In this document: one piece after another, positions 6,427-9,380 of the stretch
Numbering within the stretch: position 1 is the first letter of the stretch
Layout of the letters: the number at the start of each line of letters is the position of its first letter
Assembly: GCA_028867755.1 (NCBI GenBank)
Contig: JAGWFT010000001.1
Span: 196,727-260,726 of the forward strand
Reading direction: 5' to 3'
Length of the DNA: 64,000 bases
From: Nitrososphaerota archaeon
GTDB lineage: Archaea; Thermoproteota; Nitrososphaeria; Nitrososphaerales; Nitrosopumilaceae
Made by a program: the position numbers and the translations under genes
Notes under the pieces: generated by a model
What the model was told of the DNA's origin: nothing
The model's database searches: none
Seen by the model: only the letters and a program-made list of their open reading frames with translations

Positions 6427-6759
6427 GTGAGCTTTAACGACTCTGGTTTTGGTGAAAGTCCAAGACAAGGATACAGTGGAAATAGAGGTTATGGTGGCGG
6501 AGGTCGAAGATTCGGCGGCGGTGGACGACGCTTTGATGATAATAGACCAAAGCCAGTAGAAACTGGTAAAGAGTACGATGTATCCGTAACAGAAATCAGT
6601 AGGAAAGGGGACGGTATTGCAAGAGTAGAAGGTTTTGTCATATTCGTCAAAGGTGGACAAGTAGGCCAGAACGCAAAAGTAAAGATTACGCAAGTTGGCG
6701 GACGCTTTGCTACTGCTGATGTAGTAGGCGAAGGAACCCCACAACCAGCAACAGAATAA
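6427..6759 (+). CDS. Single-TRAM-domain RNA-binding protein with Gly/Arg-rich N-terminus
   Basis: PKPVETGKEYDVSVTEISRKGDGIARVEGFVIFV; GGGGRRF repeats. Confidence 0.9.
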   Translation: MSFNDSGFGESPRQGYSGNRGYGGGGRRFGGGGRRFDDNRPKPVETGKEYDVSVTEISRKGDGIARVEGFVIFVKGGQVGQNAKVKITQVGGRFATADVVGEGTPQPATE

Positions 6760-6791: not shown

Positions 6792-7172
6792 TTACAAATT
6801 ACTCGTTTTCTTTTTTATCTTCTCTATAATTTCCAGCTTTCTTGTTATATCCATATTTGGCTCCATGGTAACATAGACTGTTTTGTGTTTTGGATAAACA
6901 ACAATTTGTGTAACCTTTTGTCGTTCTATATGCACATAATTGACTGGACCTAGACTCTTATCAAACTGCTTTCGGATTTTTCTTCTTATGGCTACCTGTT
7001 TACAAAAGTGCTCTTCCTCTTTTTGTGATTTAAGAGATGTTTTACCTTCTTTCATTATGGCTTCAGATATGTTACCTTTGAGATCTATAATAGCAGCAAA
7101 TCTCATCATTGGATCTAGTTCTAATATATCTTCCACAATTGGAATGAATTCTATCTTACGATTACTCTTCAA
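6792..7172 (-). CDS. Thaumarchaeal hypothetical protein (DUF6659/roadblock-like)
   Basis: ILELDPMMRFAAIIDLKG..FDKSLGPVNY pattern recalled from an expanded AOA family. Confidence 0.6.
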   Translation of the reverse strand: MKSNRKIEFIPIVEDILELDPMMRFAAIIDLKGNISEAIMKEGKTSLKSQKEEEHFCKQVAIRRKIRKQFDKSLGPVNYVHIERQKVTQIVVYPKHKTVYVTMEPNMDITRKLEIIEKIKKKTSNL

Positions 7173-7327: not shown

Positions 7328-7915
7328 ATGTTTGAAAAGTTCAGAAAGAAAAAGGACGAATTTAAGCCGGATTCCACTGAAAAGGAGGAAGAAAGTGTTA
7401 CATCTGAAACCATACAATATCAGCCTCAAGAGATCAGACCGGAGGAAACTGATGTTATTGAGCAATCTAGAACCAAACCTACTGAACAAGTAAAAATATC
7501 AGAACCTATGCAACAAAGAGCAATGAGTGCATCTGGAGAAGATATAGGAATAAGAGCCCTAATGGACAAACGAACTAAGCTTGAGGAAGCAATTGATTAT
7601 GTAGGATTAATGATTAAGAATTTGAAAGATAAGAGAACGAATCTGGAAAAGAGCATAGAAGACGAATCTGTGGACATTAAGAATCTTAAGGAGAAACTGA
7701 TTAAGGTTGGTCAGTATCTTGAAGAGGAAAAACAGGGAATAAAGACATTACAACAAAAGAGAGGCGAGGTTGAAAGAGAAGCAGATGATGTAGCTGCAAT
7801 TATCAACAACCTGCGTGAAAAATTATTGAATATAGATAGGATAGTAAATGAAGAAGGCAGTAAGATAGAGAAATTTAAAGATACTAGACCCAAGTCTGAA
7901 TCTTCGTTCGGCTAG
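7328..7915 (+). CDS. Coiled-coil protein with acidic disordered N-terminus
   Basis: Heptad pattern over about 110 aa; no recognisable catalytic motif. Confidence 0.75.
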   Translation: MFEKFRKKKDEFKPDSTEKEEESVTSETIQYQPQEIRPEETDVIEQSRTKPTEQVKISEPMQQRAMSASGEDIGIRALMDKRTKLEEAIDYVGLMIKNLKDKRTNLEKSIEDESVDIKNLKEKLIKVGQYLEEEKQGIKTLQQKRGEVEREADDVAAIINNLREKLLNIDRIVNEEGSKIEKFKDTRPKSESSFG

Positions 7916-8289
7916 AAAGTAAAGCCTTCTTTTAGAATACTGTTAAGATTTTCCTTTATTTCCTCTTCGGATGACAGTGAGTCAAGATCTCTAATTAATA
8001 CCTCAGTTGCAAGACATTGATTCTTTGAGAATTGATAATAACAATCTAGTTTTTCTTGATAGGTTTTTGCATTGTAATAAATGCTCCAAAAGTTTTCTGT
8101 AGAGTGCTGTACGTAAAGTAAAAATTTTCTAATGGTCGTCTCAATTTTAGAGGAAGGATTGTCTTTCATTAGTCCAATTAGAATCTGCTCTAACTTACTG
8201 TCCAAGTTTGATTCATAAATCAATTGGTAAATGCCCCCGTCTTTTGTCACGCTTGCTTTATGTGGCTGTATCATAAAAGCTTTCATCAA
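7912..8289 (-). CDS. Hypothetical protein
   Basis: 125-aa ORF with protein-like composition, convergent overlap with the coiled-coil gene. Confidence 0.65.
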   Translation of the reverse strand: MMKAFMIQPHKASVTKDGGIYQLIYESNLDSKLEQILIGLMKDNPSSKIETTIRKFLLYVQHSTENFWSIYYNAKTYQEKLDCYYQFSKNQCLATEVLIRDLDSLSSEEEIKENLNSILKEGFTF

Positions 8290-8402
8290 TAATTTTCAAA
8301 AAATCATTCATTTACACATAATATATTTAGCTATCTTAAAAAAATTAAAATTTCAAATATGAAATTAGTCATAATGCTTAAATAATTTTCATGCGTATTA
8401 AT

Positions 8403-8596
8403 GGTCCCTGTCAGAGGACAACTCCTAAGACAGGAATCATGCAGCAAACATGCGTGATACGGTCAAGGGTAAATCCTGCCGTAGAAGATCCAGCGGAGAA
8501 ATCTCAAGGAAGTGGTGACAATGGTCATCATGTCTTGGAATGCATGTATTCCCCCGCATGACGTGTGTGAACCACACGTCTGCATGATAGAATTTT
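8403..8596 (+). ncRNA. Candidate structured non-coding RNA (~190 nt)
   Basis: Several helices with G-U pairs on the + strand, TATA-like CTTAAATA at 8377-8384, T-tract at 8592-8596 (see findings). Confidence 0.5.
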
Positions 8597-8671
8597 TCCA
8601 ATTACAATAAACTAAGCTATGTAAATTATTCAAATAGATTGTACAATAATAGCAGTTTAGTGATTGTCTGA

Positions 8672-8717
8672 AAGAATGTAGCCTCAGCGATCAGAGAAAT
8701 TGATGCGGTACATTCTT
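8672..8717. terminator. Hairpin downstream of cdvB
   Basis: aagaatgta 8672-8680 / tacattctt 8709-8717 perfect 9-bp arms between cdvB and the ncRNA candidate. Confidence 0.35.
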
Positions 8718-8741
8718 CCTAGTCAGATTATCCAGGACAGT

Positions 8742-9380
8742 CTAGATGTAGCGGGCAGAAGATGATTGACTGCTGGCTGGCATGGAAGGCAGTTTGTCGT
8801 TGACTGCTGCCTCTGCAACTGCTGCAGCTTCTTGCATAATCTTCTCTGATTCTTCGTCTGAAACTCCAGAATCAATTCCAAAGTCGCCACCATGGAATGT
8901 ATCTGTCATTAATCCACCTAGCATTTCAGTCATTCCTGACAACTCGCGATCTGCTTCTGGCATAAACTGTACCAGAGATGATCTTAGGCTCTTCATCAAG
9001 CCAATTGTTGGCATGATTGTGACAAGTGTATCTCCCAGATCGTGGAAGGTACTGAGTCTGAGCACTATTTGTTCTAGTGCAATTCTAGCATTTCCGAGAA
9101 GCTTGGTAACTTTCCTAACTTCGGCTAATTCTTTTGATAAAACCTTACTAGCGGTAGTATCATGTTGTTGAGTGGCAACTACAATTCTTTTGAATAACTT
9201 TTCATCTTTTTGTTTTAATTTTGTAAGCATTCCATCAAGTTTTCCAGTTTGGACCTGGAGTCTTTTTACTGCCTGTTCCATCCTTGGCTTCAGAGGACCT
9301 TTTGGTCTTATAGTGTCGTTAAATCTTTCACCAATGCTTGGTGTCTGTGGTTTTTGCCAATTGTTAGTAAAGTTTGTCAT
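8742..9380 (-). CDS. cdvB: ESCRT-III/Snf7 family cell-division protein (CdvB paralogue)
   Basis: Snf7-type helices ..LAEVRKVTKLLGNARIALEQIVLRLSTFHDLGD..; C-terminal DKLPSMP. Exact paralogue not determined. Confidence 0.85.
   Translation of the reverse strand: MTNFTNNWQKPQTPSIGERFNDTIRPKGPLKPRMEQAVKRLQVQTGKLDGMLTKLKQKDEKLFKRIVVATQQHDTTASKVLSKELAEVRKVTKLLGNARIALEQIVLRLSTFHDLGDTLVTIMPTIGLMKSLRSSLVQFMPEADRELSGMTEMLGGLMTDTFHGGDFGIDSGVSDEESEKIMQEAAAVAEAAVNDKLPSMPASSQSSSARYI

Follow-up and report, generated by a model that had tools for sequence, protein, structure and literature searches.

The window analysed here, a stretch of 64,000 nucleotides from a genome of the Nitrosopumilaceae, contains a GC-rich island between a gene for a 125-aa protein and a Snf7/CdvB-like gene, and the question is whether this island encodes an RNA of its own, how such an RNA would fold and what it might do. 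It had originally been predicted to specify an independently transcribed structured RNA of about 190 nt. The comparative analysis supports this interpretation and partly confirms the observations behind it: judged by its homologues, the region 8406-8597 (+) is a genuine, so far undescribed ncRNA gene of ~190 nt with a predicted transcript. Its features and neighbours are listed in Table 1.

Table 1. Predicted RNA gene, its putative signals and helices, and the adjacent protein genes, in coordinates of the window
Feature	Positions	Strand	Remarks
Divergent gene for a 125-aa protein (hyp125)	7912-8289	-	No Pfam family
TATA box CTTAAATA, putative promoter of the RNA	8377-8384	+	Conserved TTAAATA core
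Promoter-proximal element CGTATTAAT	8394-8402	+	Between the TATA box and the start site
Structured RNA, ~190 nt (predicted)	8406-8597	+	5' end estimated at 8403-8409; 3' end inside the T-tract
H1, 5' hairpin	8407-8434	+	CCUGUC 8407-8412 / GACAGG 8429-8434, inner GGA/UCC, C-rich internal loop
P2, 5' strand AUCAUGCAG	8436-8444	+	Pairs with 8580-8588; long-range stem closing the multibranch body
H3, two-part hairpin	8458-8483	+	UACGG..AGG / CCU..CCGUA
H4, three-way element	8486-8535	+	Closing stem AAGAUCC/GG..GUCU
H4a	8495-8505	+	GNRA-type loop in the window's subclade
H4b	8513-8530	+	Nearly invariant tip GAC-AAWG-GUC
H5, hairpin	8537-8552	+	GGAAU/AUUCC
H6, 3' hairpin	8561-8579	+	ACGUGUG/CACACGU, conserved GUGUG/CACAC core
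P2, 3' strand CUGCAUGAU	8580-8588	+	Partner of 8436-8444; 9 bp
T5 tract, putative archaeal-type terminator	8593-8597	+	Invariant T columns
Snf7/CdvB-like gene (cdvB), convergent downstream	8742-9380	-	Pfam Snf7 E = 2e-4, below the curated cut-off

The GC enrichment noted originally is real: the G+C content reaches 48.7% in 8406-8592, whereas it is 17% in the preceding 116 nt, 34% on the downstream side and 38% in the genome. Strong folding was likewise borne out: the minimum free energy of the + strand is -75 kcal/mol versus -52.9 +/- 4.4 kcal/mol for dinucleotide shuffles (z = -5.0), and none of 200 shuffles was as good; the minus strand of the island gave z = -4.3. The + strand was assigned on the basis of the promoter, the terminator and the score of a covariance model (R1, described below), which amounted to 163.9 bits on the + strand of the window (8402-8598) and 18.9 bits on the minus strand. 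Another argument for this strand, that the wobble pairs are G-U there and would be A-C on the opposite one, is only mildly supported by 100 G-U/U-G versus 49 A-C/C-A cells in the helices (~2:1). The TATA-to-ATG spacing at leaderless genes of the window puts the estimated start of the RNA at about 8406-8409.

Homologues were found by BLASTN in all 22 of 22 same-genus genomes, one copy each, at 66-82% identity, and R1 was built from these sequences. Scanning the family with R1 recovered the RNA in g1 (9/9), g25 (10/10), g68 (5/5) and g77 (9/9) and gave weak matches in three other genera, while the rest of the family and order yielded only two marginal matches (E about 0.001-0.009). According to both BLASTN and R1 searches, the RNA gene is single-copy per genome. 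When 185,579 species genomes were scanned with an exact pattern, 66 matched, among them Ca. N. devanaterra (LN890280.1; locus L098 7291-7482, minus strand); these represent Nitrosotalea, Nitrosopumilaceae or unclassified Thaumarchaeota/Nitrososphaerota MAGs, and no match occurred in any other lineage of this set. As all matches of the scan fall within Nitrosotalea and its relatives, the genus of the window was taken to be Nitrosotalea. The exact pattern was also found in 96 metagenome contigs and in none of the viral contigs. All of these 96 contigs exceed 1.2 kb, so none of them looks RNA-derived. On this evidence the RNA is confined to the Nitrosotalea clade of Nitrosopumilaceae, comprising Nitrosotalea and three sister genera, and rare diverged copies are present in one other genus, its absence from further genera being judged by R1 and BLASTN. 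Rows L005, L016, L002, L050 and L060 represent the unpublished genomes G010, G011, G017, G240 and G241; they are included in alignments A1, A2, A4, A6 and A8 and in model R1, and publication of alignments that contain them needs the permission of the depositors or removal of the rows. The public genomes of the pattern scan and the metagenome set A10 give the same picture without the unpublished genomes.

In g19, a large sister genus, the RNA gene and its promoter form a presence/absence cassette of ~290 bp between conserved flanks. Genomes G155 and G356 carry the cassette and G351 and G328 lack it, as seen when positions 2290-2640 of locus L174 (G155) are compared with loci L177 (G351) and L178 (G328). 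A plastocyanin-like gene borders it on one side and a gene for a K/E-rich coiled-coil protein on the other. It shows no obvious terminal repeats, and its patchy presence may stem from insertion or from repeated deletion. Among 61 g19 genomes, BLASTN detected the whole RNA in only two, plus one 31-nt partial match in G378, and no RNA was found downstream of the plastocyanin-like orthologue in eight other genomes of this genus. The two copies of G356 lie on contigs that are 91% identical over 3.2 kb and probably reflect strain heterogeneity in the bin. Next to orthologues of the 125-aa gene in g18, g20, g21 and g26, no convincing RNA was seen apart from a weak g26 match. This match is a 74-nt element resembling only H1 (L070, 1405-1478, +; CUCUAUC..UCCUCC..GAUAGAG), with a score of 14.4 bits and E about 0.001 in 35 kb. 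A short stem and a U-rich tract come after it, and it is located immediately before the hyp125 orthologue; it may represent a remnant or a reduced relative.

The consensus fold was derived with RNAalifold from the structure-blind MAFFT alignment A2 and comprises 52 base pairs. Altogether, 93.5% of the cells in A2 are paired, and double changes occur at 19 of the 52 pairs. When the 3' partners were slid by 1-3 columns, pairing was limited to 31-47%, and none of 500 shuffles reached the observed values. The corresponding figures are 95.3% of cells and 34/52 pairs changed on both sides in the four-genus alignment, and 95.0% and 29/52 in the independent metagenome set A10 (71 distinct sequences), both pairing percentages being inflated in favour of the structure by the fitting of these alignments to the covariance model. 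When pairs were ranked by APC-corrected mutual information, the top four and nine of the top ten fell in the proposed helices H5, H3, H1 and H4; the same statistic revealed no convincing extra pairs of pseudoknot or tertiary type in the alignment. Alignment A6 comprises 75 distinct sequences; together with A10, with which it may overlap, it provides ~140. Covarying homologues of the predicted RNA are, in short, numerous. The minimum free energy fold of the window's own sequence (cut at 8403-8597) includes P2, H1, H3, H4a, H4b, H5 and H6.

The helices differ in how they are conserved. Sequence-level invariance is centred on H1, including its C-rich internal loop, on P2 and on the tip of H4b, while H3, H5 and H6 vary freely in sequence yet stay paired. 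H1 is nearly invariant over four genera; 97-98% of its cells pair, and both sides of 8410/8431 have changed from A-U to G-C. P2 is 97% paired and varies little inside the clade; compensatory changes were found in L008 (U-A to C-G) and L049 (A-U to G-C). The g19 version of this stem, GUGCAACAG/CUGUUGCAU, has four pairs changed on both sides and all nine still paired. In the sets retrieved by the exact search pattern from species genomes and metagenome contigs, the invariance of P2 is uninformative, because the pattern fixed most of this stem by construction. Both-side changes occur at 9/9 pairs of H3 (alignment A4), among which 8460/8481 and 8459/8482 are top mutual-information pairs. The closing pairs of H4 covary (AAGCA/UGCUU versus AAGAU/GUCUU), and pairing in H4b reaches 100%, with replacements of U-A by C-G. 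Double changes were found at five of the six pairs of H5 (GAGUGU/ACACUC, GAAUGC/GCAUUC, GGAUCC/GGAUCC), which contains the highest mutual-information pair of the alignment. Both H4a and H5 accept large insertions in sister genera. H6 is 96-98% paired, and its second pair shows U-A to C-G changes. In this species only, an inverted copy of the 10-mer TGTGGTTCAC spans the loop and stem of H6 at 8567-8576; the motif was discarded as a conserved feature of the RNA, as the H6 loop differs in all aligned relatives.

The fold first drawn by eye agrees with this consensus in part. Its hairpins acggt../..gccgt, gag/ctc (8496-8505) and tggtgac-AAUG-gtcatca coincide with the covarying H3, H4a and H4b. The long-range stem tcc(t)aagaca/tgtcttgga (8423-8432/8531-8539) turned out to be species-specific: only 61.5% of its cells are paired in relatives, five of the nine pairs are unpaired in at least one third of them, and there is no excess over shuffles. 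The closing stem is P2 instead, and the proposed gtcc/ggac hairpin gives way to the outer pairing of H1. Of the 11-bp hairpin placed at the 3' end, the core persists as H6, while the outer GCA/UGC pairs compete with the conserved P2. The hairpin atcatgca/tgcgtgat is formable in Nitrosotalea (96.5% paired), though it shows no compensatory change and is not retained in sister genera.

The TATA box was found where it had been placed, and its TTAAATA core, unchanged in 23/23 Nitrosotalea sequences, is also kept in sister genera and g19. This heptamer is rare, with only seven copies in the 64-kb window; two of them precede the ATG of long ORFs by 21-24 nt, the spacing expected of promoters of leaderless genes. 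The textbook archaeal box TTTAAATA has no copy in the window versus six expected by chance, and the box used there reads [C/G]TTAAATA (seven copies over both strands). Oligo-T ends archaeal transcription. The T-tract of the RNA, originally assigned to 8592-8596, exists at 8593-8597; four of its T columns are invariant and the fifth is nearly so, and a run of 4-6 T is present in every homologue including those of g19. Compensatory substitutions, a promoter and a terminator of its own and the lack of a conserved ORF are among the general marks of a stand-alone ncRNA, and these are found at this locus. In the promoter-proximal element CGTATTAAT, G26, T27 and A28 are invariant (alignment A1), and the element reads ACGTAATAAT in the distant g19 homologues. 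Such conservation from Nitrosotalea to g19 is unusually strong for promoter-proximal DNA, and the element may serve as a binding site for a regulator or belong to a strong initiator region.

That the island is a small protein gene is hardly conceivable. Open frames of 54-56 aa do exist in the window, namely a 56-aa ORF at 8391-8561 (+) and minus-strand ORFs of 54 and 56 aa, but in 48 homologues the longest frame shifts in strand and phase and is often without a start or stop; moreover, the alignment contains 1-2-nt indels, and the substitutions in helices are compensatory. Conservation thus tracks the structure and not the 56-aa ORF. A diverged housekeeping RNA (RNase P, SRP, tRNA-like, or a C/D or H/ACA guide) is suggested by the size and the multi-helix fold and by the word AUGAUGA, present in the 5' strand of H4b in many Nitrosotalea sequences, and we regard it as very unlikely. 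When the 4227 models of Rfam 15 were applied to the whole window, only a tRNA was found at the gathering score; in the region 8250-8750, four chance matches were obtained at E <= 10, none of them overlapping 8403-8597, and twelve homologous loci gave nothing over the RNA at E <= 5. Like the RNase P and SRP RNAs, the RNA has multiple helices, a promoter of its own and the form of a GC-rich island in an AT-rich genome; unlike them, it is limited to one clade of one family, and their covariance models miss the locus. As had been noted, their signatures are absent here, and the genuine RNase P RNA (RF00373; C24:787396-787673, 174.5 bits, gathering score 84 bits) and SRP RNA (RF01857; C24:483417-483729, 106.6 bits, threshold 96.5) of this genome lie elsewhere on the contig that also holds the locus. 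ARAGORN detected no tRNA or tmRNA gene in 8200-8800. The family alignments contain no conserved CUGA D box, and the 3' tail is of the AUAGAAUUUUU type with no ACA after any hairpin. As a candidate C box, AUGAUGA was rejected, being base-paired in H4b and replaced by GUUGA or GGUGA in sister genera. The literature consulted makes no mention of a Nitrosotalea ncRNA, or of any ncRNA of this kind in ammonia-oxidising archaea.

A cis-acting leader deserves more attention because of the neighbourhood of the RNA. Of the loci with sufficient sequence beyond the RNA, ~90%, spread over four genera, carry a co-oriented MFS_1 transporter gene (422 aa; Pfam 95-106 bits) at a distance of 67-129 nt after the RNA, and this tight adjacency made us suspect a riboswitch-like element. 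Convergence on cdvB, as originally described, is thus true of the window's lineage; in most relatives the MFS gene lies between the RNA and cdvB. As a sensor of the MFS gene, the RNA would use P2, beside the U-tract, to set termination versus read-through, and the window's copy would have been left behind when the transporter gene was lost. A structured RNA of ~190 nt just upstream of an MFS gene on the same strand, with a stem beside a U-tract at its 3' end, does resemble the riboswitches and leaders of transporter genes, and in Nitrosotalea the 5' strand of P2 has an alternative local partner that could make it a switch. We nevertheless consider such a role unlikely. The alternative hairpin is not conserved outside Nitrosotalea, and the T-tract is invariant. 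Between the terminator of the RNA and the start of the MFS gene lies a conserved TATA-containing block, TTTTCAAATGCATTATACAATAAT, ~22-40 nt before the ATG; the MFS orthologue of g18 has almost the same block in front of it, its upstream neighbour there being a protein gene, and no RNA was found upstream of the MFS orthologues of this genus. In the window's subclade the MFS gene is absent or represented by remnants only, and no orthologue was found elsewhere in the window's genome. The RNA in nine MFS-less genomes keeps 92% of its pairs, with compensatory changes at three of them, and 23% of paired versus 49% of unpaired columns vary, so that structural constraint persists after the loss of the gene. 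The g19 copies are likewise not followed by an MFS gene. Since the MFS gene has its own promoter, the same in RNA-less g18, and the RNA stays intact after decay of the gene, we regard the RNA as stand-alone. A leader is expected to precede a gene without its own promoter and to be kept or lost together with it; here, in contrast, a separate promoter stands between the two, the RNA outlives the gene, and g18 has the MFS promoter without the RNA. We give only a small chance to an ancestral connection through read-through into the MFS gene.

The decayed MFS_1 gene itself can be recognised in the window at 8641-8741 (+). It retains a promoter remnant, TTCAAATAGATTGTACAATAAT, and an ATG at 8676-8678 that is directly followed by TAG (8679-8681); the next ~20 codons show homology to the N-terminal end of the 422-aa protein, and the remainder has been deleted up to the cdvB stop. 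On the other side, the 125-aa gene is divergent and located ~100 nt upstream of the RNA in essentially all loci. Its product was considered as a partner protein and rejected, because its distribution does not match that of the RNA: some genera have the gene but no RNA, and in g19, which has the RNA, the gene was not found. An AlphaFold model of this protein is a helical bundle (pLDDT 79), for which Foldseek found nothing in PDB at E <= 0.001.

The reading that we hold most probable, with moderate confidence, is a stand-alone RNA gene of a new family in the Nitrosotalea clade, the product of which would act in trans as a folded particle, most likely as a protein-binding or scaffold RNA. Its TTAAATA promoter would drive transcription and the T5-6 tract would end it, and the transcript would fold into H1 followed by a body in which the 9-bp P2 encloses H3, H4 (H4a and H4b), H5 and H6. 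A partner, most likely a protein, would recognise the nearly invariant internal loop of H1 (CAUCCUCCCAAG-type) and the GAC-AAWG-GUC tip of H4b. Sequence-specific reading of the particle is suggested by the concentration of invariance in H1, P2 and the H4b tip while H3, H5 and H6 vary but pair. A role as an mRNA leader or antisense RNA is less likely. What the comparisons show is the existence of the family, its fold, the signals that set the strand, the lack of a coding frame and the independence of adjacent genes; the action in trans is inferred. Ranked second, and already rather doubtful, is a seed-type base-pairing sRNA, the body of which would present a single-stranded stretch, e.g. the C-rich H1 loop CAUCCUCCC, to G-rich, Shine-Dalgarno-like sites of mRNAs, perhaps with an Sm-like protein on the 3' U-tail. 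The stand-alone promoter and terminator, the 3' hairpin with its U-tail and the conserved unpaired C-rich stretch of H1 are consistent with such a function. However, the best exact complementarity of the RNA to the whole genome extends over 14 nt, which is at chance level (E about 0.9), the g19 homologues lack the C-rich loop, and ~190-225 nt with seven conserved helices are far more structure than presentation of a seed needs. Quite unlikely, in our view, is an RNA that is catalytic or binds a ligand on its own, whether as an orphan aptamer or as a small ribozyme: the junction of several helices under a long-range closing stem and the clustering of invariant nucleotides in loops and junctions would suit this idea, but no ribozyme or riboswitch of Rfam 15 matches, no covariation of pseudoknot or tertiary type was seen, and H4a and H5 tolerate large insertions.

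Several known RNAs offer partial parallels to the proposed particle. Bacterial 6S, CsrB-type and Y RNAs are stand-alone structured RNAs in which proteins read conserved loops and which have no long antisense target. The RNA described here shares with them its stand-alone, highly structured form, its conserved motifs and the lack of a long antisense target, and we treat this as a lead; there is no similarity in sequence or structure, and their Rfam models do not match here. In enterobacteria, sgrS has its own promoter and is located directly upstream of, and co-oriented with, the MFS efflux gene setA; the SgrS sRNA acts by base pairing and is in part coding. Both arrangements place a small RNA gene that has its own promoter before a co-oriented MFS gene, and we take this as a lead only, as the organisms and sequences are unrelated and there is no sign here of co-transcription or a shared pathway. 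Closest in kind, going by published descriptions, is Tan1 (Thalassoarchaea ncRNA 1), an orphan ncRNA of 229 nt from marine group II Euryarchaeota that was found as an abundant transcript (PMC5069720). Both are clade-restricted, stand-alone archaeal RNAs of ~200 nt with a complex predicted fold, and Tan1 had no function or Rfam family when described (PMC5069720). In contrast to Tan1, which belongs to another phylum and was seen as a transcript, the present RNA is known from sequence alone; the two were compared by description only, and nothing suggests homology.

The fold has been kept by compensatory evolution in at least four genera, and therefore the RNA almost certainly does something that organisms of the Nitrosotalea clade need. 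Nitrosotalea nitrifies in acid soils, and cultures of Ca. N. devanaterra, N. sinensis and N. okcheonensis exist. To our knowledge, few structured RNA families have been described from archaea and none is specific to ammonia-oxidising archaea. More tentatively, the RNA may form the core of a new ribonucleoprotein of archaea or act as a catalyst or sensor, in either case peculiar to the acid-soil lineage Nitrosotalea; in a variant of this proposal it would have been an ancestral MFS-coupled sensor that controlled termination. If so, its functional class would be new, and it would not simply add to the regulatory sRNAs; the variant would provide the first termination-controlling sensor RNA of Nitrososphaerota. 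With cultures available, the prediction is directly testable. The g19 presence/absence cassette and the survival of the RNA after transporter loss are natural experiments on its function. The alignment and model could also seed an Rfam family and improve the annotation of soil and groundwater metagenomes.

Two further genes of the window lie 1.2-2 kb from the RNA, one for a TRAM-domain protein with RGG repeats (6427-6759, +) and the other for a DUF6659 protein (6792-7172, -). An orthologue of the DUF6659 gene is also found ~1.1 kb from the g19 RNA copy.
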